From Byssovorax sp. (lineage in GTDB: Bacteria; Myxococcota_A; Polyangia; Polyangiales; Polyangiaceae): a stretch of DNA of 36,846 nucleotides. The notes under the pieces were generated by a model. That model searched no databases, was not told where the DNA came from, and saw only the letters and a program-made list of their open reading frames with translations. The position numbers were made by a program, and so were the translations under genes. Numbering within the stretch: position 1 is the stretch's first letter; each line of letters begins with the position of its first letter. Below are positions 10,082 to 34,270 of this stretch, piece after piece. Location: the NCBI GenBank assembly GCA_046351295.1, contig JAXLYT010000035.1, positions 77,452-114,297 on the forward strand. Reading direction: 5' to 3'.

Positions 10082-10122
10082 TTGCGCGCGAGCGTACACC
10101 CGAACGGGCGAGGGCGGAGCGC

Positions 10123-10968: not shown

Positions 10969-11069
10969 GGGCGCGGCAGTATATCGAACCAGACCGAGGC
11001 GGCGGGGCGCCGTGACGGAGTCGACAAGAAAAAGGTGACGGGCGGCGACAGACCGGCGATGATCGGGGG

Positions 11070-11780
11070 ATGATCGGAAAACGACTCTCTTTTGTGGCCC
11101 TTGGACTGTCTCTTGTCGTGGCCGCCGGCGCCAACGTGCTGGCCTGCGGCGGATCGAGCTCGACCTCCACGTCGAGCACCACCTCCACCTCGACCACCGC
11201 GACCGGGACCGGCGGCTCGGGCGGCTCCACCAGCAGCGCGGGCGGGGGCGGCGCGGGTGGATCGACGACCACCACGACGACCACCGGGAGCGGCGGCTCG
11301 GGCGGCAGCAACCCCTGCCCCGGCCTCGGCGACGCCTGCTCGAACTGCGCCTCCGAGAAGTGCATGGCGGTCTACTGCTCCTGCTACGCCGACCCGCAGT
11401 GCGGCGGGCTCGTGCAGTGCAACACGAGCTGCCAGCCGGGCGACCAGAACTGCGCCCAGAACTGCCTGAACGCCAACAAGAACGGCATCTCCGAGGCCTT
11501 CCTCCTCAGCGATTGCGCCGCGTCGCAGTGCGCCGCCTCCTGCCCGGGGACGTCGGTGCTCGACGACTGCCAGCGCTGCCTCTTCACGAGCTGCGCGAGC
11601 CAGATGAACAACTGCCTCAGCGACACCGACTGCTCCGAGCTCATCCAGTGCGTGCAGCAGTGCTCGCCCGGCGACAGCGGCTGCCAGCAGGACTGCGGCT
11701 TCCAGCACCTCGGGTCCGTGGACAAGGCGATGGCCATCCAGAACTGCTCGCAGTCACAGTGCGCCGGTAAATGTATGTGA
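11070..11780 (+). CDS. lipoprotein with Ser/Thr/Gly-rich linker and C-terminal Cys-rich domain
   Basis: MIGKRLSFVALGLSLVVAAGANVLACGG (signal plus lipobox LAC); low-complexity S/T/G linker; ~36 Cys in the C-terminal 150 aa (DDCQRCLFTSCASQMNNCLSDTDCSELIQCVQQC), paralogous to the ORF at 1673-2134; GGGGGA SD-like upstream. Confidence 0.8.
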   Translation: MIGKRLSFVALGLSLVVAAGANVLACGGSSSTSTSSTTSTSTTATGTGGSGGSTSSAGGGGAGGSTTTTTTTGSGGSGGSNPCPGLGDACSNCASEKCMAVYCSCYADPQCGGLVQCNTSCQPGDQNCAQNCLNANKNGISEAFLLSDCAASQCAASCPGTSVLDDCQRCLFTSCASQMNNCLSDTDCSELIQCVQQCSPGDSGCQQDCGFQHLGSVDKAMAIQNCSQSQCAGKCM

Positions 11781-11843: not shown

Positions 11844-14800
11844 TTGCGCGCCGGAATCGGCGATGATGCCGGCACAGTCGCCTTGATCCATCGCCCGACA
11901 AGCCGCCCTCCCGCCCGCGCGGACCTTCCCTCGCTTCTCCACCACCCGATCCTCGGCCTCTCGCCGCTCGAGCAGCCCGACGGCCGGCTCGCCGTCGCCC
12001 TCGCGCGGGCCGGCGCGCTGTCGATCCTCGACCTCGGCCGCCGATCCGGGCCTGCCCGCAAGGCGCTGGCGCTCCTCGCGCGCGAGGCCCCGGACGGGTT
12101 CGGCGTGCGCGTGCCGGAGCGATCGGAGTGGGCCCCGGCAGATCTGCCCCCGGAGGTCCAGGTGGTGGTGCTCCAGGCCGGCGCTGCGGTCAGCCGCTTT
12201 TCGCCGCGCCGGGTGCTCGTCCAGATCACCTCGGAAGAAGAGGCGCTGGCGGCGGCCGAGGCGGGCGCCGATGGGCTGATCGTCAAGGGACACGAGGCGG
12301 GCGGGCGCGTCGGATCGGAGACGACGTTCGTGCTGCTCCAGCGCGTGGCCGCTGCCACGAGCCTGCCGCTCTGGGCGCAGGGGGGAATCGGGCTGCACAC
12401 CGCGGCCGCGGCGCTCGCCTGCGGGGCGCGCGGGGTGGTGCTCGACAGCCAGCTCGCGCTGGTGCGGGAGTCGTCGCTCCCGGAGCCGATCAAGGCGGCC
12501 ATCCGGGGCATGGACGGGAGCGAGACGGCGCTCCTCGGCGAGCACCGCGTGTTCACCCGGCCGGACCTGCCGGTGGCCCGGAAGAAGGCCCCCGCGCCGC
12601 AGGATCTCGGCGCCTTCCTCGCGCACCTCGGCGGCCAGGATCTGGAGCGCGATCTGCTGCCCCTCGGGCAGGACGCGGCCTTCGCGCGGCCGCTCGCGGA
12701 GCGCTACCGCACGGCGGGCGGCCTCGTGCACGCGATGCGCGCGGCGATGGACGAGCACCTCGAAGAGGCGCGGACGCTCTCCCCGCTCGGGCCGGGCTCG
12801 CCGCTCGCCCAGGATCACGGCATCCGCTACCCGATCGCGCAGGGGCCGATGACCCGGGTGAGCGATCGCGCGGCCTTCGCCGACGCCGTGTCGAAGGGCG
12901 GCGGGCTGCCCTTCCTGGCGCTCGCGCTCATGCGCGGCGACGAGGTGCGCGCGCTGCTCGTGGAGACGGCGGCGCTGCTCGGGGATCGGGCCTTCGGTGT
13001 GGGCATCCTCGGCTTCGTGCCGGAGGACCTGCGGCAGGAGCAGATCGCCGCGGTGCAGGAGATCCGGCCGAAGGCGGCGATCATCGCCGGAGGCCGGCCC
13101 TCCCAGGCCAGGCCGCTCGACGCGCAGGGGACGATCACCTACCTCCACGTCCCCTCGCCCGGCCTGCTCGATCTCTTCCTCAACGACGGTGCGCGTCGCT
13201 TCGTCTTCGAGGGGCGGGAGTGCGGCGGCCACGTCGGCCCGCGCACGAGCTTCGTGCTGTGGGAATTGCAGATCGAGCGGCTCCTCGCGTTCGCCGACGC
13301 GCGCGGCGCCGAGGGGCTCACCGGGGTGAGCGTGCTCTTCGCGGGCGGCGTCCACGACGCGCGGTCGGCGGCGATGGTCTCGGCCATGGCCGCGCCGCTC
13401 GCGGCCCGCGGCGCGCATATCGGCGTGCTGATGGGCACGGCCTACCTCTTCACGGAGGAGGCGGTGGCCACGGGCGCGATTCTGCCCGCGTTCCAGGAGG
13501 CCGCGCTCGAGTGCGAGCGCACGGTGCTGCTCGAGACGGCACCGGGTCACGCGACGCGCTGCACCGACAACGACTACGCCCACTCTTTCCAGGAAGAGCG
13601 GGCGCGCCTCGAAGCGGAGGGCAAGAGCGCCGAGGAGGTGTGGGCGGCCCTCGAGCAGCTCAACCTCGGGCGCCTGCGCCTCGCCGCCAAGGGGCTCAGA
13701 CGCGAGGGCCCGTCGCTCGTGAAGGTGGATCACCCGACCCAGGCGCGGGAGGGCATGTTCATGATCGGGCAGGTCGCCGCGCTGCGGTCGGCGATCCTCA
13801 CGATCGAGGCGCTGCATGAGGACGTGAGCGCCGGCTCGATCGCCGCGCTCGCCCGCTCCGCGCCGCCGGAAGAGCGCGCCGGAGAGAAGCCCCGCCCGGC
13901 CGACATCGCCATCATCGGCATCGCCTGCATCTTCCCCGACGCGGTCGACCGGCATGCCTACTGGGCGAACATCTGCGCCGGGAAGAGCGCGGTGACCGAG
14001 GTCCCGAAAGAGCGGTGGGACGCGGCGATTTACTACGATCCCGAGGCGCCCGCCGGCGAGAAGTCGGCGTCGCGCTGGGGCGGCTTCCTCCCCACCATCG
14101 CCTTCGATCCGCTGCTCTACGGCATCCCGCCGCGCTCGCTCTCTTCCATCGAGCCGGTGCAGCTCCTCGCGCTCGACGTGGCCCGCCGGGCGCTCGAGGA
14201 CGCGGGCTACGGCGAACGATCGTTCGATCGGGAGCGCACCGCGGTGATCTTCGGGGCCGAGGCGGGCACGGATCTCAGCTCGGCCTACGGCTTCCGCGCG
14301 CTCGTCCCGCAGTACGCGGGGCCGCTCCCGCCGGCCCTCGACGAGCACCTGCCGACGCTGACGGAGGACTCGTTCCCGGGCGTGCTCGCCAATGTCATCG
14401 CCGGGCGCATCGCCAACCGCCTCGATCTCGGCGGGTCGAACTACACGGTGGACGCGGCATGCGCGTCGTCGCTCGCCGCGGTCGATCTGGCCGTGAAAGA
14501 GCTCACGGCCGGCTCGGCCGACCTCGTGCTGTGCGGCGGCGCCGATCTGCACAACAGCATCAACGACTACCTGCTCTTCTCCAGCGTCCACGCGCTCTCG
14601 CCGACCGGCGCATGCCGCACCTTCGACGCCTCGGCCGACGGGATCGTCCTCGGTGAGGGCGTGGCGTGCGTGGTGCTCAAGCGCCTCGCCGACGCCGAGC
14701 GCGACGGCGATCGGATCTACGCGGTGATCAAGGGCATCGCGGGCAGCAGCGACGGGCGGAGCCTGGGCCTCACCGCGCCCCGGAAAGAAGGGCAGATCCG

Positions 14801-17800
14801 CGCGCTCGAGCGGGCCTACCGGGCCTCGGGCGTCTCGCCGGCCGAGGTCGGGCTCGTCGAGGCGCACGGCACCGGCACGGTCGTTGGCGATCGCACCGAG
14901 CTCGGGACGCTGACCGACGTGTACCTCGGCGCGGGCACGGCGCCGGGCGCGGCCGCGCTCGGCTCGGTGAAATCGCAGATCGGCCACACCAAGTGCGCCG
15001 CGGGCCTGGCCGGGATGATCAAGACCGCCCTCGCCCTCCACCACCGCGCGCTGCCGCCCACGTTGCAGATTCGCAAGCCCAACCCGGGCTGGGATCCGGC
15101 GTCGAGCCCCTTCCATTTCAGCGATCACGCTCGCCCCTGGCCCGGCGAAGAGCGCCGGGCCTCGGTGAGCGCCTTCGGCTTCGGCGGGGCGAATTTCCAC
15201 GCGGTGCTGAGCGCCTACGAGGGCGCCGATCCGCCGGCCTCCGGCCTCGAGCGCTGGCCGGTCGAGCTCTTCCTCTTCCGCGCGCCCGATCGCGCCGCGG
15301 CCGCCGCCCGGATCGAGCAGATCGAGCGGCTCCTCACCGACGAGGTGATCGAGGCCGCGCAGCGCGGCGCAGGGCTCTTCACGCTCGCCGATCTCGCCCG
15401 CAGCGTGTCGGAGCGGCGGAGGCGCGCCGACGGCCCGGTGCAAATCGCCGTCCTCGCCGAGAGCCTCGCCGACCTGCGCGACAAGCTGAAGCGCGCCCGC
15501 GCCTTCACCGCCGACGGCCGATCGATCTTCGTGGCCGGCGCGGCGGGCGAGGCTTCGCCGGGCAAGGTGGCCTTCCTCTTCCCGGGGCAAGGGAGCCAGC
15601 GCACCGGCATGCTCGGCGATCTGTTCCTCGCCTTCCCGCCGCTCCAGCGCTTCCTCTCGCTCGGATCGCGCTGGGTCTCGCGGATGTTCCCGCCGATGGC
15701 CCCGACGCCGGAGATCCGCGCGGCGCAGGTGGCGGCCCTCACCGACACCCGCGTCGCGCAGCCCGCCCTCGGCGTCACGTCGCTCGCGCTCGGATCGCTG
15801 CTCCGATCGCTCGGGCTCAAGCCGGACATGGTGGCCGGGCACAGCTACGGCGAGCTCGCCGCGCTCTGCTTCGCGGGGGCGATCGACGAGGCCGATCTGC
15901 TCGCGCTGAGCGAGCAGCGCGCCGCGTGCATCCTCACCTCGACCGGCGACGATCCCGGGACGATGGCCGCCGTCACCGCGCCGCCGAGCGCCGTGGAGCC
16001 GGTGATCGAGGGCATCGAGCAGGTGGTGATCGCCAACCACAACGCGCCCGAGCAGACGGTCATCTCGGGGCCGACCAGCGGCATCGCCGAGGCGATCGCG
16101 GCCCTCGAGGCCGAGGGCCTCTCCGCCCGTTCGATCCCGGTCGCATGCGCCTTCCACAGCCCGCTCGTCGCGCGCGCGCCGGCCCTCTTCGCCGAGCACC
16201 TCGCCCGGATCGACGTGCGATCGCCCCACGTCCCCGTGTACTCCAACGCCACCGCGGCCACCTACCCGGCCGACGCGCGCGCCATCCGCAACATGCTGGC
16301 CGATCACCTCGGCCTCTCGGTGCGCTTCACCGAGGAGATCGAGGCCATGTACGCCGCGGGGGCGCGCACCTTCGTGGAGGTGGGCCCGGGCCGCGTGCTC
16401 TCCGGCCTCGTGGGGAAGATCCTGGCCGGGAAGCCCCACCTCGCGGTGGCATGCGATCAGAGCGGCGAGCCCGGCCTCGCCCGCCTGCTCGCCGCCCTCG
16501 CCGAGCTCGCGGTGGGCGGCGTGGCCGTCGATGCCGCTGCTCTGTTCGCGGGGCGCGCCGCGCGCCTGCTCGATCTCGCGGCCATCTCGACGGCGCCGCG
16601 ATCGAGCTCGCTCTGGCTCGTCAACGGGCACCTGGCGCGCCCCGCGGTCGGCGAGATCCCGAAGGGCGCGCTGCGCCCCGTGGAGGGCCCGCTCGTCAAC
16701 GTCTCCGCCGCGCCGCCCCCGCCGGACGATCGAAAGGACGCGGTGATCGAGTTCCTCCGCGCGAGCCGCGAGATCGTGGAGGCGCAGCGGCAGGTGATGC
16801 TCGGCTTCCTCGGGCAGGCGCCCGAGGTGATCGAGGTCGCCGGCGTCCCGCAGAACGTCCCGGCCCTCGGCACAGGCCCCTCGACCCGCCGGGTCACGCT
16901 CCCGCCCGCGTCCTCGCAGTCCTCCTCGTGGCCGCCGCCGTCGCGCGCGCCCAGGTCCGAGGCCGAGCTGCCGCTCCGCGTGCGCGGACCGGTGCCTTCC
17001 ATCCCCGCGCCGATGCCGAGCCTCACGCCGCCGAGCCTCAAGGACACGCTGCTCGGCATCGTGGGCGAGCGCACCGGTTACCCGGTGGAGATGCTCGATC
17101 TCGATCTCAACCTGGAGGCCGATCTGAGCATCGACTCGATCAAGCGGATCGAGATCCTCGGGACGCTCGGCCAGATGATGGGCTGGGCGCCCGGCTCGGG
17201 CGACGGGCGCGACAAGATGATCGAGAAGCTCGCCACGCAGAAGACGCTGCGGGGCATCCTCACGTGGCTGGAGGCGAACCCCGGTGGAAAGCCCGCGGCC
17301 GAGCCCGCCAAGGCCGATCCGCCGAGGGCCGAGCCGGCCTCGCCCGCGAGGACATCACGCCTCGCGCTCCACCGGTTCCTGCTCTCGGTCGAGGACGCGC
17401 CGGCCCGCCCGGTCGCGGAGATCGGCCGCCGGCGCTGGGCGATCGTGCCCGATCGCGCGGGCGTGGCCGAGGCGCTCGGCGACCTGCTCGCGGCCCGCGG
17501 CGCGACGGCGCGCGTGATCGGGTCCGGCGAGCCGCTCGGAGAGGCCGACGGCCTCGTCGATCTCAGCGCGCTCGCGGCGATCACGACCGAGGAGGTGACG
17601 GCGTCCACGCGCGGCCTGTTCGAGCGGCTCAAGCGCGCCGGAGAGGCCGGGCTCACGGTGGTGATCGCCGCCGTCCCGCTCGGCGCGCCGTTCGGGCCGG
17701 AGGGCGCGCTCCCCCGCGCCGGCGTGGCCGGCCTGATCAAGACGGCCGCGCGCGAGCTGCCCCTGCTCTGCGCGCGCGCCGTGGCGCTCGATCCGGCCGA

Positions 17801-18851
17801 GGGCGCGGCGCAGCAGGCCGAGCACCTGCTCGACGAGCTGCGGATCCGCGACGCGCACCTGGAGGTCGCGCGGGTGGGCGGGGCCCGCAAGGTGCTCATC
17901 CCCATCTCCGCCGATCGGATCCGCAACGGCGCAGACGGCACCGGCATGCTCCTCGGCCCGGAGTCGGTCGTGCTGGTGACCGGTGGAGCACGCGGGATCA
18001 CGGCGTCAACGGCGGTCGCCATCGGCAAACGCTTCGGCTGCCGGCTGGAGCTCGTCGGCCGCACCCCCTTGCCCGACGAGGACGAAGATCCCGATCTCGC
18101 CGCGCTCCGCGATCTCCCGGCGCTCCGCAAGGGCATCCTCGCCAGAGGGCTCGCCACCACGCCCGCCGCGGTGGAGTCCCTCTGCGCGAAGATCACCGCG
18201 GCCCGCGCGCTCCGGAGCACGCTCGCCGAGATCGCGAAGACGGGCGCCACGGCCCGCTACCACGCGGTCGACGTGCGCGATCGGGCCGCCTTCGGCGCGC
18301 TCATCGACGCCATCTACGCCCACCACGGCCGCATCGACGGCGTGATCCACGGCGCCGGGGTGCTCGAAGACCGCCTGATCGCCCAGAAGACGCGCGAGTC
18401 CTTCGATCGCGTCTTCGACACCAAGGTGGAGAGCGCGCTCACCCTGGTCGAGAAGATCCGCCCGGACCTCGGCTTCTTCGTCTTCTTCGGGAGCGTCTCC
18501 GGCGCCTTCGGCAACAAGGGTCAGATCGACTACGCCGCCGCCAACGACACCCTCGACAAGCTCGCCTACTGGCTCAAGGAGCGCGTCAAGGGGCGGGTCG
18601 TCTCGCTCGACTGGGGCCCGTGGGCCGGCGCGGGGATGGTCTCGCCCGAGCTCGCCCGCGAGTACGAGCGGCGCGGCGTGGGCCTCATCGATCCCCAGCA
18701 AGGGGTCGACGCCTTCCTCGACGAGCTGCTCCACGGCGGCGCCGCCTCGCAGGTCATCCTCATGAGCGGCAGCCCCGAGGTGATGATCTGGCAACCCGCG
18801 GCCGAGGCCCCGCCGGTGACCGCGCCCTCCCCTATCGTCATCGATGCATGA
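11844..18851 (+). CDS. type I PKS / PUFA-synthase-like multidomain enzyme: NMO-like domain, PfaD-like FMN enoyl reductase, KS, AT, ACP and KR
   Basis: Continuous 2,335-aa ORF. Motifs: GIRYPIAQGPMTRVSD...FEGRECGGHVG (PfaD/trans-ER type ER); DAACASS (KS Cys codon 14460-14462), EAHGTGT, IGHTK; FLFPGQGSQ and GHSYGE (AT Ser 15843-15845); LEADLSIDSIKRIEILG (ACP Ser 17136-17138); VLVTGGARGITAS (KR Rossmann). The start is uncertain: the track uses TTG at 11844, alternative TTG at 11883. Confidence 0.9.
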   Translation: MRAGIGDDAGTVALIHRPTSRPPARADLPSLLHHPILGLSPLEQPDGRLAVALARAGALSILDLGRRSGPARKALALLAREAPDGFGVRVPERSEWAPADLPPEVQVVVLQAGAAVSRFSPRRVLVQITSEEEALAAAEAGADGLIVKGHEAGGRVGSETTFVLLQRVAAATSLPLWAQGGIGLHTAAAALACGARGVVLDSQLALVRESSLPEPIKAAIRGMDGSETALLGEHRVFTRPDLPVARKKAPAPQDLGAFLAHLGGQDLERDLLPLGQDAAFARPLAERYRTAGGLVHAMRAAMDEHLEEARTLSPLGPGSPLAQDHGIRYPIAQGPMTRVSDRAAFADAVSKGGGLPFLALALMRGDEVRALLVETAALLGDRAFGVGILGFVPEDLRQEQIAAVQEIRPKAAIIAGGRPSQARPLDAQGTITYLHVPSPGLLDLFLNDGARRFVFEGRECGGHVGPRTSFVLWELQIERLLAFADARGAEGLTGVSVLFAGGVHDARSAAMVSAMAAPLAARGAHIGVLMGTAYLFTEEAVATGAILPAFQEAALECERTVLLETAPGHATRCTDNDYAHSFQEERARLEAEGKSAEEVWAALEQLNLGRLRLAAKGLRREGPSLVKVDHPTQAREGMFMIGQVAALRSAILTIEALHEDVSAGSIAALARSAPPEERAGEKPRPADIAIIGIACIFPDAVDRHAYWANICAGKSAVTEVPKERWDAAIYYDPEAPAGEKSASRWGGFLPTIAFDPLLYGIPPRSLSSIEPVQLLALDVARRALEDAGYGERSFDRERTAVIFGAEAGTDLSSAYGFRALVPQYAGPLPPALDEHLPTLTEDSFPGVLANVIAGRIANRLDLGGSNYTVDAACASSLAAVDLAVKELTAGSADLVLCGGADLHNSINDYLLFSSVHALSPTGACRTFDASADGIVLGEGVACVVLKRLADAERDGDRIYAVIKGIAGSSDGRSLGLTAPRKEGQIRALERAYRASGVSPAEVGLVEAHGTGTVVGDRTELGTLTDVYLGAGTAPGAAALGSVKSQIGHTKCAAGLAGMIKTALALHHRALPPTLQIRKPNPGWDPASSPFHFSDHARPWPGEERRASVSAFGFGGANFHAVLSAYEGADPPASGLERWPVELFLFRAPDRAAAAARIEQIERLLTDEVIEAAQRGAGLFTLADLARSVSERRRRADGPVQIAVLAESLADLRDKLKRARAFTADGRSIFVAGAAGEASPGKVAFLFPGQGSQRTGMLGDLFLAFPPLQRFLSLGSRWVSRMFPPMAPTPEIRAAQVAALTDTRVAQPALGVTSLALGSLLRSLGLKPDMVAGHSYGELAALCFAGAIDEADLLALSEQRAACILTSTGDDPGTMAAVTAPPSAVEPVIEGIEQVVIANHNAPEQTVISGPTSGIAEAIAALEAEGLSARSIPVACAFHSPLVARAPALFAEHLARIDVRSPHVPVYSNATAATYPADARAIRNMLADHLGLSVRFTEEIEAMYAAGARTFVEVGPGRVLSGLVGKILAGKPHLAVACDQSGEPGLARLLAALAELAVGGVAVDAAALFAGRAARLLDLAAISTAPRSSSLWLVNGHLARPAVGEIPKGALRPVEGPLVNVSAAPPPPDDRKDAVIEFLRASREIVEAQRQVMLGFLGQAPEVIEVAGVPQNVPALGTGPSTRRVTLPPASSQSSSWPPPSRAPRSEAELPLRVRGPVPSIPAPMPSLTPPSLKDTLLGIVGERTGYPVEMLDLDLNLEADLSIDSIKRIEILGTLGQMMGWAPGSGDGRDKMIEKLATQKTLRGILTWLEANPGGKPAAEPAKADPPRAEPASPARTSRLALHRFLLSVEDAPARPVAEIGRRRWAIVPDRAGVAEALGDLLAARGATARVIGSGEPLGEADGLVDLSALAAITTEEVTASTRGLFERLKRAGEAGLTVVIAAVPLGAPFGPEGALPRAGVAGLIKTAARELPLLCARAVALDPAEGAAQQAEHLLDELRIRDAHLEVARVGGARKVLIPISADRIRNGADGTGMLLGPESVVLVTGGARGITASTAVAIGKRFGCRLELVGRTPLPDEDEDPDLAALRDLPALRKGILARGLATTPAAVESLCAKITAARALRSTLAEIAKTGATARYHAVDVRDRAAFGALIDAIYAHHGRIDGVIHGAGVLEDRLIAQKTRESFDRVFDTKVESALTLVEKIRPDLGFFVFFGSVSGAFGNKGQIDYAAANDTLDKLAYWLKERVKGRVVSLDWGPWAGAGMVSPELAREYERRGVGLIDPQQGVDAFLDELLHGGAASQVILMSGSPEVMIWQPAAEAPPVTAPSPIVIDA
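11935..12570 (+). other. N-terminal nitronate-monooxygenase-like (FMN TIM-barrel) domain of PKS gene 1
   Basis: HHPILGLSP...LARAGALSILDLG; GADGLIVKGHEAGGRVG; LWAQGGIG. These are NMO/IMPDH-like FMN-barrel signatures lying upstream of the canonical PfaD-like ER. Confidence 0.55.
12819..13830 (+). other. PfaD-like enoyl reductase domain
   Basis: GIRYPIAQGPMTRVSDRAAFADAVSKGGGLPFLAL ... RRFVFEGRECGGHVGPRTSFVLWE. Confidence 0.8.
13898..15222 (+). other. ketosynthase domain (KS1)
   Basis: IAIIGIACIFPDA...TVDAACASSLAAVDLA...EAHGTGTVVGD...GHTKCAAG...GFGGANFHAVL; a full Cys-His-His catalytic set is present. Confidence 0.9.
15560..16450 (+). other. acyltransferase domain (AT1, canonical)
   Basis: AFLFPGQGSQRTGM...GHSYGELAAL...AFHSPLV. 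Confidence 0.85.
17040..17290 (+). other. acyl carrier protein domain (single ACP)
   Basis: LGIVGERTGYPVEMLDLDLNLEADLSIDSIKRIEILGTL; only one ACP copy is present, whereas PfaA-type proteins carry tandem ACPs. Confidence 0.8.
17380..18720 (+). other. ketoreductase domain (KR)
   Basis: VLVTGGARGITASTAVAIGKRFG...IHGAGVLEDRL...YAAANDTLDKLA (Tyr/Asn catalytic region). Confidence 0.8.
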
Positions 18852-24800: not shown

Positions 24801-25116
24801 CGGCGCGGGCGTGCGGCGATCGATCGCCCACTACGCCCACGATCTCGCGATCGAGCTCGCGCATCAGGCCGGGCAGCTCCGGGTGCTCCGCGCCTCGACG
24901 CAGGCGGCGCTCCCGGCTGCCTACGTCAAGGTCTACGCCCGGCAGACCGGCGGCGCCGTGAGCTTCTACAAGGATGGCTACACCGACCTCCGGGGCCGCT
25001 TCGACTACGCCACCCTCTCGACCGACGACCTCGATCGCACCGAGCGATTCTCCCTGCTCGTCGTCTCGCCCGAGGCCGGCGCGACGGTGATGGAGGCGCC
25101 TCCGCCGGCCCGGTGA
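18848..25116 (+). CDS. very large (~2,090 aa) multidomain protein of unknown function embedded in the PKS operon; apparent 1-nt frameshift at about 22143-22147
   Basis: ATG at 18848 overlaps the TGA of gene 1 (ATGA); alternative ATG at 18881 (MDIDLDL) has GGGGGAGA upstream. Protein-like translation runs in frame 2 from 18848 to about 22145 (TPR-like helical N-terminus, then beta-rich repeats TVKVFRINALAYF, GTYVVELIG, VTVTVLDEQGRPLPDARLWMGGQE). It then continues in frame 1 from about 22150 to 25116 (helical region, then C-terminal beta domain YVKVYARQTGGAVSFYKDGYTDLRGRFDYATLSTDD). Restoring one C in the CCCC run at 22143-22146 joins ...ADLPSP to ETAPAHRDRRLRLALDPDG. No signal peptide, no nucleotide-binding or PKS motif was recognised. 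Confidence 0.7.
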
Positions 25117-25200
25117 GATCTCGCCTTGCGCCAGCGGCGGAGCCGTCGCAAAAGCCCTGCGCGATGAGCTTCGTGGCCGATCGTTCCGAGGAGTCCGCGC

Positions 25201-28200: not shown

Positions 28201-29301
28201 CCGATGACGATGATCCTCGAGCTCATGCGCGAGATCGCCGAGGAGCTCGTGCCGGGCAAGATCGCCGTCGGTCTCTCGGGCGTGCGCGCGTACCGCTGGA
28301 TGGCCGTCGCGCCCCCGGTCGATCTCACCATCACCGCTCGCCACGACGGCGCCTGCCGCGTCGAGCTGAGCATCGAGGGCTTCGCGGCCGGCGCGGTCGA
28401 GCTCGCCGACGCCTACCCCGCTCCGCCGCCGCGCGATCTCTCCCCGCTCACCGGCGAGGCCGCGCCCGCCATCGACGCCCCCACGCTCTACGCCGATCGC
28501 TGGATGTTCCACGGCCCCGCGTACCAGGGTGTGCTCTCCCTGGACACGATGGCCAACGATGGGATCCGCGGTCGCCTCGCGTCCCTCCGGGCGAAGGGCG
28601 GCCTGCTCGACAACGCGGGCCAGCTCCTCGGCTACTGGGTGATGGAGCATGCCGAGAACGACCGCCTCGCGATGCCGGTCATGCTCGAGCGCGTGCGCTT
28701 CTTCTCCCCCGCCCCGCCCGTCGGTGAGGACCTCGACTGCACCGTGTGGATCCGCCGCCTGAGCGACACCGACGTCCGGGCCGACGTGGAGCTGTGCGAA
28801 GGCGATCGGGTCTTTTGCCGGATCGACGGCTGGGAAGATCGCCGCTTCGACTCCGATGCCCGGGTGTGGGCCGTGCTCCGCTACCCCGAGCAGAACCTCC
28901 TCGCCGTGGTCGACGAGCAGGGCCGAGGCCTCGTCAAGCAGCCCTGGAAAACGGCCGCGTCACGCGATCTCCTCGCACGCCGCTACCTGAGCGAGCGAGA
29001 GCGCGAGGCACACGCCAAGATCGATCTCCGCCGGCAAGGCGAGTGGCTGCTCGGCCGGATGGCCCTCAAGGACTGCGCGCGGCGCCTGCTCTGGGAGCGC
29101 GGTCACGGGCCGATCTTCCCCATCGAGATCGAGGTCGAGACCGATCCGGCCGGCCTGCCGAGGCTCCGCGGTCCGCTCGCGGATCGGCTCGTCGCGCGCC
29201 TGGCCGTGAGGCCGGGGTACGCCGCGGCCTGGGTGGGCGATGCCGATCGAGAGGTCGATCTCGCGGCGCTCCTCGACCAGGCCGAGCCCCGCGGCGAATG
29301 A
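25201..29301 (+). CDS. type I PKS: KS, atypical AT, DH and a C-terminal AcpS-like PPTase-like domain
   Basis: 1,366-aa ORF with GAGGAG SD 7 nt upstream. KS: DAACASS (Cys codon 25831-25833), EAHGTGTAAGD, IGHTMPAAG. AT-like: AFLFPGVDSSF plus GHSIGEWSGM (Ser 27109-27111). DH: LHDHAFYRQPEGWP ... LYADRWMFHGPAYQGV. Tail: YLSEREREAHAKIDLRRQGEWLLGRMALKDCARRLL and IEIEVETDPAGLPRLRG, resembling the AcpS motifs (RFAAKEAxxKA; FEVFNDELGKPRLRLWG). Confidence 0.9.
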   Translation: MAERDKRGVAIVGMAALFPGARDLAAFEQNLAAGADAFRDAPPDRIDPAFYDPASTAPDRLYCRRGGFLPEPVRFDAASFGIMPIAAQGAEPDQLLALDLAARALADAGYADRPFARDKASVILGRGGYLTPGVARLDQRVRAAEQLVQSLRALLPDLPDDKLAAVRAEVQAGLGPFGPDTAIGLVPNLAASRIANRLDLGGSAYTIDAACASSLVAVDHACRDLHAHRADLVLAGGVHLCHDPGFWSVFCQLGALSRSGQIRPFDRRADGLLIGEGVGVLALKRLADAERDGDRIYAVIRGTGTASDGRGASLMSPDMNGQIAALRRAWDDAGLDPSLVGMIEAHGTGTAAGDGAELGTLARVFGPARADEARAALGSVKSMIGHTMPAAGAAGLIKAALALHHARLYPSLHCEEPRAEVEATRFRILSRAEPWESPGRPRVAGVNAFGFGGINAHVVLEEHPASRPSTSPRASSPSSTSSTSSPTVVEPVLFLAAESPAALCEALDAHDAHNAHDERAASGPARLALFNPTPERRARARAIVARGEPWRGRDDLWFSAEGLLARGGRVAFLFPGVDSSFDPRVDDVASRFGLPLSMPEGKRSLKDLGMGIIAVGRLLDAALRRIGVYPAMIAGHSIGEWSGMIASEMIPRDEIDGIIARLAPESVSVPGVTFIAAGCGLDKAIAAMEGLPEIAVSHDNCPHQLILCGIEASADIALDRLKKMGVLSQKLPFQSGYHSRLFHAYTGPHRRILAGLPLTTPAVPLWSATTCAPYPADPEAIRRLAVQHILEPVRFRELTLALHEAGARAFIQVGTGSLIGFVGDTLRGLPHLAVSANMPARSGLAQLRRVAAALWTEGASPDLGRLDMAPPARREKVRAAPPIEISLGAPLVTARGPLDRPAPPAPAGDLDGIADLAYLDLDPTDPLAVELGLGLASIRAAQRDVVAAFLRAPIAPPAAGPHEITLQRSISVDDYPELHDHAFYRQPEGWPALVDRYPVVPMTMILELMREIAEELVPGKIAVGLSGVRAYRWMAVAPPVDLTITARHDGACRVELSIEGFAAGAVELADAYPAPPPRDLSPLTGEAAPAIDAPTLYADRWMFHGPAYQGVLSLDTMANDGIRGRLASLRAKGGLLDNAGQLLGYWVMEHAENDRLAMPVMLERVRFFSPAPPVGEDLDCTVWIRRLSDTDVRADVELCEGDRVFCRIDGWEDRRFDSDARVWAVLRYPEQNLLAVVDEQGRGLVKQPWKTAASRDLLARRYLSEREREAHAKIDLRRQGEWLLGRMALKDCARRLLWERGHGPIFPIEIEVETDPAGLPRLRGPLADRLVARLAVRPGYAAAWVGDADREVDLAALLDQAEPRGE
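25219..26590 (+). other. ketosynthase domain (KS2) with intact C-H-H triad, so not a CLF
   Basis: VAIVGMAALFPGA...IDAACASSLVAVDHA...HGTGTAAGD...GHTMPAAG...GFGGINAHVVL. Confidence 0.85.
26900..27790 (+). other. acyltransferase-like domain with non-canonical GVDSS motif
   Basis: VAFLFPGVDSSFDP replaces the usual GQGSQ; GHSIGEWSGM nucleophile elbow retained; a downstream HAYTGPHRR-like His region is present. Confidence 0.6.
28070..28850 (+). other. PKS-type dehydratase (double hot-dog) domain
   Basis: LHDHAFYRQPEGWPALVDRYPVVP (HxxxGxxxxP-like) and LYADRWMFHGPAYQGV (GPxFQG motif). Confidence 0.7.
28870..29298 (+). other. AcpS-type phosphopantetheinyl-transferase-like C-terminal domain
   Basis: About 145-aa tail after DH: LSEREREAHAK...RMALKDCARRLL (a match to the W/F-x-x-K-E-A-x-x-K motif with E replaced by D) and IEVETDPAGLPRLRG ... 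AAAWVGDADREV, resembling AcpS C-terminal motifs. The N-terminal Mg-binding motif looks degenerate (VVDEQG). Confidence 0.45.
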
Positions 29302-29368
29302 GCGATCGCGAGCCCGTCCTCGCCGGATCGATCTCGACCGCCTCGCAGACTCCCGCTAGAACGGCGAG

Positions 29369-29665
29369 GTGACCGTCCAGCCCGAAGATCACCTGCGCGA
29401 GCAAGTCCTCTCGACCGTCACGGTGATGATCCGGCAGGTGATCGACGACGAGGCGGGCCTCGGGGCGCCCATCGCCCTCGCGACCTCGTTCAACGCCGAT
29501 CTCGAGCTGGAGAGCATCGAGTTCGTGGCTCTCGCCGAGAAGCTCCAGGCCCACTACGGCGGCGCGGTCGACTTCACCGGCTGGCTCTCGGGCAAGGAGC
29601 TCGACGAGATCATCGCGCTCACGGTGGGCGACCTGGTGGAGCACATCGTCCGGTGCCTCTCGTAG
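29369..29665 (+). CDS. discrete acyl carrier protein
   Basis: 98 aa; GTG start preceded by GGCGAGG; acidic helical protein with FNADLELESIEFVALAEKLQ (Ser-containing helix-II region); its 3' end overlaps the next gene by 13 nt. Confidence 0.65.
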   Translation: MTVQPEDHLREQVLSTVTVMIRQVIDDEAGLGAPIALATSFNADLELESIEFVALAEKLQAHYGGAVDFTGWLSGKELDEIIALTVGDLVEHIVRCLS

Positions 29666-30411
29666 ACAAGCGCGGCGTCCGGTTCCACACCCAGGTCCTC
29701 GGCGAGGGCGCGCCCCCGCTCGTGATGCTCCACGGGCTCCTCATCGGCAACCTCGCCTCGTTCTACTTCACCGCCGCGCCCGCCCTCGCCGAGCGCCGCA
29801 AGGTGCTGCTCTACGATCTCCGCGGACACGGCAAGAGCCAGCGTGTTCCATCGGGCTACGATGTCTCCACCATGGCGGGCGACCTCGAGGCGCTCTCCGA
29901 AGATCTCGGCGAAGGCCCGATCGATCTCTGCGGCCACAGCTACGGCGGCCTCATCGCCCTCCGCTTCGCCCTCGATCACCCCGGCCGCGTGCGCCGCCTC
30001 GCCCTCGTCGAGACCCCGCTCCCGCCCTCGAAATTCGGCGATTTCGAGTCGTTCTTCGCCCAGGGCCCGGCCGAGATGGTCGCCGGTCTCCCCGAGAGCC
30101 TGCAAACCGTCCTCGGCCACGGCGGCCGCCGCGCTGCCCGCCTCCTCGACGCCCTCCGCTTCCTCACCCAGGAGAGCTCCCTGCTCGCCGATCTGCGCGC
30201 CGAGCCCGACATCCCCGACGAGGTGCTCGCCACGCTCGGCTGCCCGGTCCTCTGCGTCTACGGCACCACCTCGCTCTGCGCGCCCATGGGCGAGCGGATC
30301 GCCCGCGCCATCCCCGGGGCGCGCCTCGTGATGCTGCCCGGCGGCCACTACCTCCACCTCGACGCGACCGAGCCGCTCACCCGCGCGCTCCAGGGCTTCT
30401 TCGATGGCTGA
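29653..30411 (+). CDS. alpha/beta-fold hydrolase (putative thioesterase or acyl hydrolase), paralog 1
   Basis: 252 aa; HGLLIGN oxyanion region; GHSYGG nucleophile elbow (Ser codon 29938-29940); C-terminal GGHYLHLD with the catalytic His; overlaps the next start (ATGGCTGA). Confidence 0.75.
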   Translation: MPLVDKRGVRFHTQVLGEGAPPLVMLHGLLIGNLASFYFTAAPALAERRKVLLYDLRGHGKSQRVPSGYDVSTMAGDLEALSEDLGEGPIDLCGHSYGGLIALRFALDHPGRVRRLALVETPLPPSKFGDFESFFAQGPAEMVAGLPESLQTVLGHGGRRAARLLDALRFLTQESSLLADLRAEPDIPDEVLATLGCPVLCVYGTTSLCAPMGERIARAIPGARLVMLPGGHYLHLDATEPLTRALQGFFDG

Positions 30412-31204
30412 CATCACGGCCCGCGGCCTCCGTTTCCATGTCCAGCGCCTCGGCGCGCCGCAGGAGGGCGCGCCTGTCGTCGTGTTCCTGCACGGCCTCG
30501 TGATGGACAACCTGTCGAGCTTCTACTTCACGCTCGCCAACCCCGCGGCGCAGCTCGGCGAGGTCGTGCTCTACGATCTCCGCGGCCACGGCAAGAGCGC
30601 GCGCCCCGCCGCGGGCTACGGCCTCGACGAGATGGTGGCCGATCTCGACGCGCTCCTGCGCGCGCTCTCCTCACCGCGCCCGTGGTGCTCGCCGGCAACA
30701 GCTTCGGCGGCCTGCTCGGCCTGGCCTTCGCGGCCGCCCACCCCGATCGCGTCGCCGGCCTCCTGCTCATCGACGCCCACCTCGGCGAGCAGGGCTGGGC
30801 AGACAATACGGCCGCGACCCTCAAGCTCGAAGGCGAGGCCCGCGATCGCATGATCCAGGCATCGTTCGAGCACTGGCTCGGCCGCCACAGCGAGAAGAAA
30901 TCGACCCGCCTCGCGCAGACGGCCTCGGCCCTCGTGTACGGCACCTCGCTCGTCGACGAGATGGCGCATTCTCCCTCGCTCGGCGAGGACGCGCTCCGCC
31001 GCGTCACCTGCCCCGTGCTTGCCCTCTACGGCGAATCGAGCGATCTGCGCGCCTCGGCCGAGGCCCTCGGCCGCGCCCTGCCCGCCGTCGATCTGCGCGT
31101 CTACCCCGGCTGCTCGCACTCGATCCTCTGGGGAGGCCACCGCGAAGGTGCGCGAGGACATGCTGGCCTTCCTCCGTTCGTTGCAGCTCAAACCATCTCC
31201 CTGA
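30404..31204 (+). CDS. alpha/beta-fold hydrolase, paralog 2, interrupted by two compensating frameshifts
   Basis: N-terminus in frame 2 (MADITARGLRFHVQRLG...LYDLRGHGKS), collinear with paralog 1. The middle part (30665-31131) is readable only in frame 1 (VVLAGNSFGGLLGLAFAAAHPDRVAGLLLID...PGCSHSILW). The C-terminus returns to frame 2 (EATAKVREDMLAFLRSLQLKPSP*). A 1-nt deletion in the tcctca run at about 30668-30673 and an extra G in the GGGG run at 31130-31133 explain this. Confidence 0.65.
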
Positions 31205-31207
31205 CCC

Positions 31208-32415
31208 ATGGCGCGCTTCCTCTTCGTCGTCCCGCCGCTCGCTGTCGGTCACACCAACCCCACGGTGAGCGTGGCGGCGGCCCTCCGCGCGCGCGGCCAC
31301 GAGGTCGCGTGGGTGGGGCACCCGGGCGTTGTCCGCCCGCTCTTGCCCGAAGGCGCGACGCTCTTCGCCCTCGACGACCAGCTCCCCGAGGAGCGCTGGA
31401 CGCAGGCCCAGGCGACCTCTCGCACCGCGCGCGGCCTCGCCGCGCTCAAGTTCCTCTGGGAAGAGTTCTTCATCCCCCTCGCCCGCGCCATGGTCCCCGG
31501 CGTCGAGGACGCGATCGATCGCTTCCACCCCGACGCGCTCGTCGTCGATCAGCAAGCCGTCGCCGGCGCGGTGGCGGAAGGCGCGGCCTGCCCTGGGCCA
31601 CCTTCGCCACCACCTCCGCGGGCCTCACCGATCCGCTCGCCGGCCTCCCGCTCGTGCGCGCGTGGCTCGACGCCCAGCTCGCCACGCTCGAACAAGAGGC
31701 CGGTCTCGCCCCCGTGCCCGAGCCCGATCGATCACCGATGCTCGTCGTCGCCTTCAGCACCGCCGAGCTCGCCGGCCCACCCGAGCGCTTCCCCTCGCAC
31801 TATCAGTTCGTCGGCCCCTCGATCCATGCGCGCCCGCAGACCACACCCTTCCCCTGGGAAGATCTCCGCCCCATTCCGCGCGTCCTCGTCTCCCTCGGCA
31901 CCGTCAACGCCGAGGCCGGTGAGCGCTTCTACGCGACCGTGATCGAGGCCCTCGGTGACGATGGATCCCATCGTGGTCCACGCCCCCAGGTCGTGCTCGT
32001 CGCGCCCGACGCCCTGGTGAAACAAACCGCGCCCAACATCATCCGCCGCCCCTTCGTCCCCCAGCTCGCGCTCCTGCCCGAGATGAGCGCCGTCGTGTGC
32101 CACGGCGGGCAAAACACCGTCTGTGAGGCCCTCGCGCATGGCCTGCCGCTCGTCGTCCTCCCCATCAAGGACGATCAACCGGTCATCGCGCAGCAGGTCG
32201 TCGACGCAGGCGCCGGCATCCGCCTCAAGTTCGGGCGTGTCCGCGCCGACGAGCTCCGCGAGGCCGTGCGCCGCGTCCTCGAAGAGCCGTCCTTCCGCGA
32301 AGCCGCTCGGCGCATCCAGCGCTCCTTCACCGCAGCCGGCGGCGCCCCGCGCGCGGCCGAGCTCATCGAAGGCCTGATCGGACAAGCTCCTCCCACCGTG
32401 CCCGCCGCGACGTAG
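31208..32415 (+). CDS. GT1-family glycosyltransferase (MGT/UDP-glycosyltransferase-like), with an apparent 1-nt frameshift at about 31577-31581
   Basis: N-terminus in frame 2 (MARFLFVVPPLAVGHTNPTVSVAAALRARGHEV); C-terminal two thirds in frame 1 with VCHGGQNTVCEALAHGLPLVVLPIKDDQPVIAQQVVDAGAG (GT1 donor-binding signature). Restoring one A in gaagg to gaaagg gives ...AVAAERRGLPWATF..., the typical AAERLGIPW region. Confidence 0.75.
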
Positions 32416-32452
32416 TACCCTCCCCTCCTCCCTTGCCCATGAGCCCTTCACC

Positions 32453-34270
32453 ATGGCCCTGATCTGGGTCCTCTTCGCCCTCCTCCTCCTCCTCGACTCC
32501 TTCCGGATCCGAGGCCGCCTCGCCTCCATCCCGTCGATCAACCCCTCGGACGATCCCGTCTCCCCCGAGCACCGCTTCCTGCTCGGCACAGGCGTCACGC
32601 TCGACGAGCCCACGCGCCGCGCCGCGAGCGCCTACGCCCGCGCCCAGGATCTCGTCGTCCTCGATCTCATCCCCGGCGATCTCCCCGCGCAGCGCGCCCT
32701 CGGCCTGCTCCAGGTGATCGATCCGTCGAAGTACCGCCAAGATCGGCTCGGCAAGGGCCTCACCGCCGGCCACGCGATCCTCGTCACCCAGGAGGTGCTC
32801 GACAAGGCCTGCATCGAGGAGGCCGAGGCCAAGGCGCCGCTCGGCACCGTCGAGATCGCCCGCGTCGCCGGCAAGCTCAAGCGCTACGCGAAGGGCGGCG
32901 CCGACCTCGCCATCGCGCCCGACCTGAAGGCCGTGCCGGACGAGAAGGGCCGCCGCCTCGCCGCGATGCGCGAGGTCGTGGGCGGCACCGGCGTCAACGC
33001 CGTGCTCATCGGTGTCCCGCTGGTCCTCACCGTCATCGGCGTCGCCGCCGCCTTCCAGGGCCTCGGCTTCGCCCCGCTCGTCGCCTTCCACCTCCAGCCC
33101 CTCATCGCCCTCTTCGCGACCCGGGTAAGCTCGCGCGATCTCTTCCTCCTCACGCTCTTCCGCGCCCCGATCGAGCTCTTCACCTGGCTCACGCTCCTCC
33201 TCGAGCCCAACGGCGGCATGGACCCGAAGCGCATCGCCGCGCTGCGCCCGGCGTACGACGAGCTCCTGAAGGGCGGCCTCGATCCCTTCTTCGAGCCCCG
33301 CGCCACCGCGTGCCCGCTCTGCGCGAGCCCCGATCTCACGGTGAAGGTGCGGCTCACTGACATGATCCAGCACAAGCCCGGCAAGTTCACCCTCGAACGG
33401 TGCAAGGGCTGCGGGCACATCTTCCAGAACCCGCGCCTGTCGATCGACGGGCTCAACTTCTATTACAAGGACTTCTACGACGGCCTCGGCGAGGACGATC
33501 TCGACTTCATCTTCGGGGCCTCGGTCGACGCCTACGACGCGCGCGCGACGTTCGTGCATGGCGAGATCGAGCCGAAGATCTGGCTCGACGTGGGCGGTGG
33601 TCACGGGCACTTCGCCACCTCGGCGCGCAAGCACTGGCCGGAGACGCGCTTCGAGGGGCTCGATCTGAGCGAGAGCATCGAGGAGGCCGAGCGGCGCGGC
33701 TGGGTCGACGCGGGCCACCGGGGTCTCTTCCCCGACATGGCCCCGCTGCTCGCGGGCCGCTACGACGTGGTGAGCATGAGCCACTACCTCGAGCACACGC
33801 GCGATCCGCGCGCCGAGGTCGACGCGGCGAAGATCGCGCTGCGCGACGGCGGGCTCCTGATGATCGAGATCCCCGATCCGGACTGCGCCTACGGCTCGCT
33901 CTTCGGGCGCTACTGGCTGCCCTGGTTTCAGCCGCAGCACCAGCACTTCGTGTCGTACAAGAACCTGCAGAAGATCCTCGAAGAGCGCGGGTTCTCGCTG
34001 CTCAAGGTCCACCGGAGCGAGGCCCATATCCGGGTCGATTTCTCCGCGGCCGTGTTCCTCTTCCTCGACCACGTGGCCCCGTCGCCCGAGGTGCCCTGGA
34101 GGCCCGCGCGAGGCGGCCTCTCCCGCGCCGCGCGGATGGCGATCTACGCCCTCGGGACACCGCTCATCGTGCTCGGCATCCTGCTCGACAACACGCTGTC
34201 ACGGCTCTTCGTGGCGGCGACGATCGGCAACGCGTTCCGGGTGCTGGCGAAGAAAGAGACGGCCAGGTAG
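32453..34270 (+). CDS. polytopic membrane protein fused to a zinc-ribbon class I SAM-dependent methyltransferase (TylCIII/Methyltransf_13-14-like)
   Basis: 605 aa; N-terminal TM helices (MALIWVLFALLLLL; VNAVLIGVPLVLTVIGVAAAF; LFLLTLFRAPIELFTWLTLLL); CPLCAS...CKGCGH four-Cys ribbon; LDVGGGHGHFA SAM motif I; C-terminal TM helix IYALGTPLIVLGILL. Confidence 0.75.
   Translation: MALIWVLFALLLLLDSFRIRGRLASIPSINPSDDPVSPEHRFLLGTGVTLDEPTRRAASAYARAQDLVVLDLIPGDLPAQRALGLLQVIDPSKYRQDRLGKGLTAGHAILVTQEVLDKACIEEAEAKAPLGTVEIARVAGKLKRYAKGGADLAIAPDLKAVPDEKGRRLAAMREVVGGTGVNAVLIGVPLVLTVIGVAAAFQGLGFAPLVAFHLQPLIALFATRVSSRDLFLLTLFRAPIELFTWLTLLLEPNGGMDPKRIAALRPAYDELLKGGLDPFFEPRATACPLCASPDLTVKVRLTDMIQHKPGKFTLERCKGCGHIFQNPRLSIDGLNFYYKDFYDGLGEDDLDFIFGASVDAYDARATFVHGEIEPKIWLDVGGGHGHFATSARKHWPETRFEGLDLSESIEEAERRGWVDAGHRGLFPDMAPLLAGRYDVVSMSHYLEHTRDPRAEVDAAKIALRDGGLLMIEIPDPDCAYGSLFGRYWLPWFQPQHQHFVSYKNLQKILEERGFSLLKVHRSEAHIRVDFSAAVFLFLDHVAPSPEVPWRPARGGLSRAARMAIYALGTPLIVLGILLDNTLSRLFVAATIGNAFRVLAKKETAR

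Follow-up and report, generated by a model that had tools for sequence, protein, structure and literature searches.

Among the multidomain lipid synthases tabulated by Shulse & Allen in 2011 (Table S1, PMC3098273), Types M, N and O are given as uncharacterised. The Type M entries combine a protein with enoyl reductase (ER), ketosynthase (KS), malonyl acyltransferase (MAT), acyl carrier protein (ACP) and ketoreductase (KR) domains, in the order ER-KS-MAT-ACP2-KR, with a second protein made of KS, acyltransferase (AT) and phosphopantetheinyl transferase (PPTase) domains, KS-AT-PPTase, and with a free ACP. They come from three Frankia strains, Renibacterium salmoninarum, Actinosynnema mirum and Streptomyces avermitilis (NP_828536-38), and a near-identical layout is listed for Chryseobacterium and Chitinophaga (Type N) and for Dinoroseobacter, Gloeobacter and Parvularcula (Type O) (PMC3098273). 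In a 2026 paper, a Renibacterium cluster with fused pfaDA and pfaBC-PPTase is again described as an uncharacterized secondary lipid synthase (PMC13291983), and our literature search found no paper assigning a product to an operon of M/N/O type. The operon analysed here belongs to Byssovorax sp. (Polyangiaceae) and lies in a stretch of 36,846 nucleotides (GenBank assembly GCA_046351295.1, contig JAXLYT010000035.1, positions 77,452 to 114,297 of the forward strand), hereafter the window. It forms a single co-directional block of genes on the + strand (11844-34270), in which two large synthase genes (genes 1 and 3), separated by an unrelated gene (gene 2), are followed by a free-standing ACP and a set of tailoring genes.

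A further architecture in the same table, Type P, consists of ER-KS-MAT-ACP-KR plus PPTase and covers ArsA/ArsD of A. vinelandii and a Beijerinckia pair (PMC3098273). ArsA and ArsD build the saturated C22-C26 acyl chains of phenolic lipids (PMC3098273, PMC4824345, PMC6274091), and the ACP of ArsA passes these chains directly to type III polyketide synthases (PKSs) (PMC4824345, PMC6274091).

The Byssovorax operon is best explained as the copy, in one myxobacterial clade, of a Type M/N/O secondary-lipid synthase operon with ArsA/ArsD as its closest characterised kin. This explanation as a whole is probable, and the assignment of the locus to the family is very likely to be correct. In layout, the three-gene core of the window, ER-KS-MAT-ACPn-KR / KS-AT-PPTase / ACP, corresponds to that of Types M/N/O, the PPTase being represented by a homologous but shortened stretch. 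The differences are a single ACP in gene 1, where most Type M entries have two, a truncated PPTase and the 2,078-aa unrelated gene between the synthase genes; unlike the 2011 table for these types, the present annotation also includes a dehydratase (DH) and a tandem ER. The architecture is not new, having been on record since 2011 (PMC3098273), and the window holds a further member of a widespread family.

Domain organisation of the synthase proteins

With a G+C content of 70-76% across the window, plain lists of open reading frames (ORFs) are uninformative, and genes were called from the G+C content of third codon positions (GC3). Genes 1 and 3 give a strong GC3 signal, and their products are 100% identical to proteins of an NCBI metagenome-assembled genome labelled Byssovorax sp., to which the window belongs. 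Together their products hold a full set of KS, AT, ACP, KR, DH and ER domains, and the domain order and catalytic motifs of both proteins are real, far beyond chance (Table 1). The orders ER-KS-AT-ACP-KR for gene 1 and KS-AT-DH for gene 3, proposed by an earlier sequence-only reading of this DNA, are borne out by matches in Pfam, NCBIfam and the PDB.

The start codon of gene 1 is a TTG at 11844 or 11883. The ER region of its product, of the NMO/FabK type (aa ~30-666), is made of two tandem TIM-barrel NMO domains, NMO1 and NMO2, both with a G.E.GG motif (PDB, NCBIfam). Motifs were counted in those 103 of the 120 gene 1 homologues listed in which both could be matched. In NMO1 the motif reads E[SA]GG[R/P/L/A/E]xG, with a His in none of the 103 homologues, while NMO2 has ECGGHVG in 99 of them and keeps the His of GGH in all 103. 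This His is the counterpart of the catalytic His of FabK. Because the FabK-type His is always missing in NMO1 and kept in NMO2, NMO1 is most likely a non-catalytic partner (pseudo-ER), and NMO2 is likely to be the catalytic ER. The sequence-only reading had placed a PfaD-type ER that uses flavin mononucleotide (FMN) at the N-terminus: the FMN-type ER region is there, but as a pseudo-ER/FabK-type tandem, and gene 1 has no PfaD-family NCBIfam match at E<=1, in a library that may not contain such a model. The best NCBIfam model for gene 1 is omega_3_PfaA (TIGR02813), at 944 bits under its cut-off of 1010. This agrees with the earlier view of an iterative 'secondary lipid' synthase, which is of type I and resembles PfaA. 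The KR looks competent from its motifs, and the single ACP read in gene 1 agrees with the only PP-binding site found.

In gene 3, KS2 has the same Cys-His-His set as KS1 of gene 1, and the locus therefore has no chain-length factor (CLF); the earlier statement of two complete KS domains holds. An AT, rather than a further KS-like domain, comes after KS2, and the DH matches only PS-DH / PKS_DH_N. The AT of gene 3 (AT2), marked as doubtful (AT*) by the sequence-only reading, does not look obviously dead, with GHSIGE present; all 120 gene 3 homologues listed carry GHS[IVLM]GE. The DH looks competent by the same kind of evidence. The DH-PPTase part of the protein, its C-terminal ~430 aa, is homologous to ArsD.

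A conserved operon and its relation to the ars system

Gene 1 has more than 120 full-length homologues in many phyla, with 54-78% identity, and the same applies to gene 3. Their sources include Myxococcota, Acidobacteriota, Gemmatimonadota, Burkholderiales, Acidimicrobiales, Pendulispora, Sulfidibacter and Streptomyces. The order gene 1, gene 3, ACP, hydrolase(s), glycosyltransferase (GT), methyltransferase (MT) recurs in a Burkholderiales metagenome-assembled genome (MAG), an Acidimicrobiales MAG, an ENA metagenome contig and a Streptomyces plasmid, and the conserved genes follow the same order in the close relatives L089 and L090. In all loci compared, the second synthase gene is followed by a free ACP. 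When species-representative genomes were scanned with two motifs specific for AT2, at least 584 matches were confirmed; the best 80 of these are all from Streptomyces, and in 79-80 of the 80 gene 1, the ACP, one hydrolase, the GT and the MT are collinear. In Gram-negative operons there are two hydrolases, and the MT is longer and anchored in the membrane. An operon with ACP, hydrolase(s), GT1 and methyltransferase, sometimes sulfotransferase, is thereby shown to be strictly kept across Actinomycetota, Myxococcota, Burkholderiales and Acidimicrobiales.

Some lineages vary around this core. In the Burkholderiales MAG (L002) a sulfotransferase gene (24163-25437) takes the place of the MT, and another sulfotransferase gene (8699-9736) lies beside the operon in L003. 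In the ENA contig (L004) the operon is immediately preceded by two genes for fatty acid desaturases (8125-9877), and hydrolase 2 and the GT form one fused protein of 658 aa. A lipid product would fit, because desaturase and sulfotransferase genes flank the operon in these other lineages.

The relation to ars was examined with the architecture given in Table S1 of PMC3098273 and with Beijerinckia orthologues. A tblastn search of plasmids led to pBIND02 (66.7 kb) of Beijerinckia indica, which carries an ars-type (Type P) cluster (L005, 12940-27442) consisting of a 2,674-aa type I PKS of the order NMO-NMO-KS-AT-ACP2-KR, two type III PKSs, a 629-aa DH-ACPS protein and a GT. Gene 1 is 45% identical to the ArsA-like protein of this cluster and collinear with it over ~1,695 aligned columns, from the first NMO through the AT, and residues 936-1323 of gene 3 (DH and N-terminal lobe of the PPTase) are 32% identical to the ArsD-like protein. 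By these alignments gene 1 is shown to be orthologous to ArsA-type proteins, and the DH-PPTase part of gene 3 to ArsD. An identity matrix of the available KS domains points the same way: KS1 domains are 66-73% identical among phyla and 54-56% identical to the KS of ArsA, which groups with them, while KS2 domains form a separate group with 61-69% mutual identity and 44-51% identity to KS1.

The two systems share the pseudo-ER/ER tandem of ArsA, a GT, which in Beijerinckia comes after the ArsD-like gene, and an iterative synthase that uses malonyl-CoA only, a property inferred for the window. They differ in several respects. The ars clusters have two type III PKS genes between arsA and arsD and no KS2-AT2, free ACP or alpha/beta hydrolases, whereas no type III PKS (FabH-like) ORF is found in the window. 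ArsD is a separate DH-PPTase protein with a complete PPTase, whereas the ArsD-like part of the window is fused behind KS-AT; and the ArsA-like protein of B. indica has two sequence-identical ACP repeats where gene 1 has one ACP.

Because gene 1 and the DH of gene 3 hold all the parts of ArsA/ArsD, the locus is most simply read as a fully reducing iterative synthase fed by malonyl units only. AT1 would load malonyl units on ACP1, and KS1, KR and NMO2, with the DH of gene 3 acting in trans, would run iterative and fully reducing cycles as in ArsA/ArsD, NMO1 being the presumed non-catalytic partner of the ER. The outcome would be a long, mostly saturated acyl chain on ACP1, and we somewhat favour such a long-chain core, of the kind made by fatty acid synthases. 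Because ars has type III PKSs in the corresponding place, KS2-AT2 and the free ACP (ACP2) may receive the completed chain and either extend its end or pass it on, a specific role that is put forward tentatively. The alpha/beta hydrolases, Ser-His enzymes of which an operon has one or two, would release the product, the GT1 enzyme could add a sugar to a hydroxyl, such as the 3-hydroxyl left by the KR, and the membrane methyltransferase would methylate it, or a sulfotransferase would finish it in some lineages, yielding an amphiphilic envelope lipid. The chances that the end product is a glycosylated/methylated lipid appear about even; the sequence-only reading had made the same guess, which is a reasonable one given that the ACP-hydrolase-GT-MT set is kept with the synthase across phyla. 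For the MT, transmembrane segments are predicted at its N-terminus, at ~175-250 and close to its C-terminus.

Four points weigh against the explanation of the locus as a working M/N/O-type operon related to ars. No member of the family has a known product, and all steps past domain assignment are inferred. One KS suffices in ArsA/ArsD, which leaves KS2-AT2 and the second ACP unexplained. The tie to the actual Type M/N/O strains consists of the same architecture and the genus Streptomyces, not of a sequence comparison. Lastly, this copy may not work as sequenced, with its truncated PPTase, missing exporter and three frameshifted genes.

The function of the second KS-AT could also be read differently, with KS2-AT2-ACP2 adding two or three unreduced malonyl units, the hydrolases cyclising and releasing an alkylpyrone- or alkylresorcinol-like head, and the GT and MT decorating it. 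KS2-AT2, the ACP and the hydrolases do stand where ars has its pair of type III PKS genes, a GT also comes after the Beijerinckia ars cluster, and type III PKS pathways are well known to yield phenolic lipids that are O-methylated and glycosylated. Such a head is nevertheless unlikely, as the locus has no product-template, cyclase or TE/CLC-type (thioesterase/Claisen cyclase) domain, and KR, DH and ER could act on ACP2-bound intermediates too. Nor do the hydrolases give a specific signal: their matches are generic, with esterases and lactonases on top and the thioesterase (TE) of CurM in sixth place.

Two other chemistries were considered for the hydrolases, namely RhlA/RhlB-like formation of esterified hydroxy-acid dimers carrying a sugar and CurM-type sulfonation and decarboxylation to a terminal alkene. 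Neither is favoured, because the hydrolase matches are generic.

Peculiarities of the Byssovorax clade

The Byssovorax clade is set apart by an inserted giant gene and by the loss of PPTase function, and in the window the exporter is missing as well. The C-terminal PPTase-like domain of gene 3 announced by the sequence-only reading exists as a homologous stretch, but it is a truncated vestige without a significant match to a hidden Markov model (HMM). Searched alone, the C-terminus of gene 3 gives AcpS matches at E 0.03-0.5 only (HMM and PDB searches), and the stretch is recognised solely by alignment with homologues. The PPTase of full-length homologues shows WLLGR..KDA, VSIAH, GIDIE and W..KEA..K in this alignment. 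Gene 3 ends ~10-20 aa past the position of GIDxE, with the C-terminus 'GDADREVDLAALLDQAEPRGE*'; the last ~100 residues, including W..KEA..K (the P3 motif), are missing, and other residues stand in place of the (V)S(I)AH motif. The same end point is found in P0122-P0124, the three closest relatives, which have 76-77% identity and come from independent assemblies, and PF01648 is absent from all four proteins and found in most other relatives. Judging from this shared end point, the truncation is a real trait of the clade. Lacking the catalytic C-terminal half of the PPTase, the system must have its ACPs activated by a PPTase encoded elsewhere. Both PPTase motifs are carried by 88 of the 120 gene 3 relatives listed, and in ~30 of the 120, including P0130, P0131 and P0132, the domain is truncated or motif-degenerate. 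Since the degenerate cases are scattered among lineages, their distribution suggests that the PPTase domain has been lost repeatedly.

Gene 2, which is not described in the sequence-only reading, occupies 6.2 kb between genes 1 and 3. It has 120 listed homologues with 42-71% identity, nearly all of ~2,000-2,250 aa, and the named ones are all from Myxococcota (Nannocystis, Labilithrix, Kofleriaceae, Polyangiaceae). No Pfam or NCBIfam match was obtained for gene 2, nor any Pfam domain in the 120 homologues. Nannocystis exedens and another MAG encode it by itself, away from any synthase; among the loci compared it lies between synthase genes only in the window and in L001, L089 and L090, and it is absent from the best 80 of the at least 584 loci, all of them Streptomyces. 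By this distribution, gene 2 is a lineage-specific insertion outside the conserved synthase operon. It carries an invariant '..ACHEL..LF' stretch. An AlphaFold 2 model of its C-terminal half (pLDDT 73) contains beta-sandwich arrays and helical repeat regions, which Foldseek relates weakly to complement C3/C4/C5/CD109 and GH2 enzymes (lowest E 6e-8, TM ~0.1); the model thus gives a weak hint of beta-sandwich arrays in the protein. The gene 2 sequence shows no evident CxEQ thioester motif.

In the three closest relatives (L001, L089 and L090), an MsbA-like ABC transporter of ~620 aa (ABC_membrane + ABC_tran) is encoded between genes 2 and 3. The corresponding gap in the window (25117-25200) has just 85 bp, and no trace of the transporter is found in it.

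The tailoring genes predicted earlier, that is an ACP, two hydrolases, a glycosyltransferase and a membrane methyltransferase, are all found downstream of gene 3, with hydrolase 2 and the GT frameshifted as sequenced. In the GC3 plot the coding frame changes near 22144, within gene 2, and three times within 30404-32415; the ORFs of gene 2, hydrolase 2 and the GT are thus broken in the sequence as it stands. Four indels were defined against the intact orthologous locus L089 (Table 1), and the two in hydrolase 2, which lie 460 nt apart, offset each other. The indel pattern resembles the homopolymer errors of long-read MAG assembly. The four indels are probably assembly errors; they may instead reflect a very recent inactivation.

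A decaying, non-functional copy, with its operon split, its exporter lost, its PPTase truncated and its tailoring genes frameshifted, is what these indels, the absent ABC transporter and the shortened PPTase would jointly represent if each were taken at face value. We regard such decay as quite unlikely. After bridging, hydrolase 2 and the GT show 80-86% amino acid identity to L089, against 76% for gene 3, which makes the frameshifted genes the best conserved of the operon, and both indels of hydrolase 2, and probably that of gene 2, sit in runs of C or G, where sequencing or assembly errors typically fall. All catalytic motifs of genes 1 and 3 are intact, as is their strong GC3 signal. The PPTase truncation, common to four independent assemblies in which the other genes are intact, points to an old trait tolerated by the clade.

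Three genes upstream of gene 1 (7355-11780) are syntenic in L001, the 77%-identical relative, and do not stand beside the operon in other phyla. The remaining flanking genes, at 3114-4733 (-), 4565-6139 (+), 6096-7358 (-) and 34281-35609 (-), encode a Ser/Thr protein kinase, a BD-FAE/Abhydrolase_3 esterase, a beta-lactamase-family serine hydrolase and a lamin-tail-domain protein, and these four appear unrelated to the operon.

Table 1. Features of the Byssovorax locus (window coordinates) and position of the ABC transporter gene in related loci
Feature	Position	Strand	Description	Evidence or location
Gene 1	11844-18851	+	2335 aa; pseudo-ER - ER - KS1 - AT1 - ACP1 - KR	Pfam, NCBIfam and PDB matches
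NMO1	11931-12743	+	FabK/NMO-like TIM barrel; motif EAGGRVG, without catalytic His	PDB FabK matches, aa 32-220
NMO2	12819-13841	+	FabK-type FMN enoyl reductase; motif ECGGHVG	TIGR03151, aa 326-666, E 1e-37
KS1	13902-15071	+	Cys in DAACASS, His in HGTGT, His in IGHT	aa 687-1076, E 4.5e-70
AT1	15573-16403	+	Malonyl-type: GHSYGE, Arg 25 residues past the active-site Ser, AFHS	aa 1244-1520, E 1e-38
ACP1	17043-17186	+	Pfa-type motif LSIDSIKRIEIL; sole carrier domain of gene 1	aa 1734-1781
KR	17967-18626	+	GGARGIT; Ser, Tyr and Asn present	aa 2042-2261, E 3e-34
Gene 2	18881-25116	+	ORF of 2,078 aa once a 1-nt deletion is bridged	Frame switch in GC3 plot
Indel, gene 2	~22144	+	1-nt deletion	Probably in a C or G run
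Gene 3	25201-29301	+	1366 aa; KS2 - AT2 - DH - truncated PPTase	HMM, PDB, homologue alignment
KS2	25219-26445	+	Cys in DAACASS, His in HGTGT, His in IGHT	aa 7-415, E 3e-58
AT2	26893-27651	+	Divergent; GHSIGE kept, N-terminal GQGSQ changed to GVDSS	Partial match, aa 612-817, E 1.7e-10
DH	28123-28857	+	PKS-type (PS-DH); His motif LHDHAF, DxxxQ motif LLDNAGQ	aa ~975-1219
Vestigial PPTase	28948-29298	+	Sfp-type, N-terminal lobe only	Alignment with full-length homologues and ArsD
Free-standing ACP	29369-29665	+	98 aa; motif LESIEF, PP-binding	Directly after gene 3
Alpha/beta hydrolase 1	29653-30411	+	252 aa; nucleophile motif GHSYGG, C-terminal His	Domain match
Alpha/beta hydrolase 2	30404-31207	+	GNSFGG; two 1-nt indels	End-to-end alignment with intact orthologues when bridged
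Indel, hydrolase 2	~30668	+	1-nt deletion	C run
Indel, hydrolase 2	~31132	+	1-nt insertion	G run
Glycosyltransferase	31208-32415	+	GT1 family (UDPGT/EryCIII/OleD-like); 4-nt deletion	Domain matches
Indel, GT	~31570	+	4-nt deletion	Relative to L089
Methyltransferase	32453-34270	+	605 aa; S-adenosylmethionine-dependent, Methyltransf_23	Cys-rich zinc-ribbon-like motif
Small ORF	11070-11780	+	Weak VDE-lipocalin match	63 nt upstream of gene 1, same strand
Leucine-carboxyl-methyltransferase-family gene	10123-10968	-		Upstream of gene 1
Dicty_CTDC repeat protein	7355-10099	-	914 aa	Upstream of gene 1
ABC transporter in relatives	L001 23461-25338; L089 8149-10014; L090 8131-10008			Three closest relatives

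Place among known synthases and significance of the family

Other described systems resemble the locus in part. The heterocyst glycolipid (Hgl) system (HglE/D/C/B + HglT) likewise couples a Pfa-like iterative synthase to a GT for a long-chain glycolipid. Unlike the window, it has a KS-CLF-AT protein (HglC) and a KR on its own, and it lacks a fused ER (Table S1, PMC3098273), and the window locus has no thioester reductase, again unlike Hgl. The enediyne PKSs (PKSE; KS-AT-ACP-KR-DH-PPT) are also iterative type I synthases with a C-terminal DH-PPTase. An enediyne reading is rejected: the window domains are split over two proteins, where PKSE is a single polypeptide, and a second KS-AT and an ER are present. 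For neither KS-AT do the first 60 PDB matches include an enediyne PKS, and no enediyne cassette genes are found in the window.

With the Pfa synthases of polyunsaturated fatty acids (PUFAs), the locus shares a PfaA-like KS-AT...KR, the Pfa-type ACP motif and an FMN-type ER; KS2 is closest to the KS of PfaC among PUFA structures, and 6riw (KS-CLF) is the third-best PDB match. It differs by having no CLF, FabA-type DH pair, tandem ACP array or AGPAT, and by an ER that is fused N-terminally and duplicated.

The sequence-only reading had seen here an undescribed, compact PUFA-synthase-like system in which two polypeptides cover all activities of Pfa (PfaA, PfaC, PfaD, PfaE). Its domain order is real, PfaA does give the best NCBIfam model, and the domain content supports the claim that the locus follows neither the canonical pfa1-3 layout nor that of the enediyne PksE. 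The remainder does not stand. The architecture was tabulated in 2011 (Types M/N/O in PMC3098273, with Type P lacking the additional KS-AT) and appears again in a 2026 paper (PMC13291983), and it occurs at least 584 times in species-representative genomes. Nor are all Pfa activities present, as the PPTase is a vestige without its catalytic half, CLF, FabA-type DH and tandem ACPs are missing, and gene 1 has one ACP. An undescribed Pfa-like system is accordingly highly improbable. PUFA synthesis as in the myxobacterial pfa clusters, to which the PfaA-like KS, AT and KR and the Pfa-type ACP motif might point, is hardly tenable in a locus without FabA-type DH/isomerase pair, KS-CLF and tandem ACPs, whose nearest characterised relative yields saturated C22-C26 chains.

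By itself the window adds little, and the greater interest lies in the family, which is among the most widespread type I synthase operons without a known product, from Streptomyces to myxobacteria. Its members can be regarded as ArsA/ArsD in which an additional KS-AT-ACP stands in for the type III PKSs. This view, the pseudo-ER/ER tandem and the PKS-type DH between AT2 and PPTase could help in characterising them. It is possible, though doubtful, that the family (at least 584 stretches, 80+ Streptomyces species, Frankia) makes a new class of glycosylated, methylated/sulfated very-long-chain envelope lipid, KS-AT and the free ACP substituting for type III PKSs; the proposal extends to the arrangement in the Byssovorax clade. 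If true, co-transcription would have tied the operon of this clade to an ABC exporter and to the Myxococcota-specific protein of 2,080 aa, and the operon would do without a PPTase of its own.

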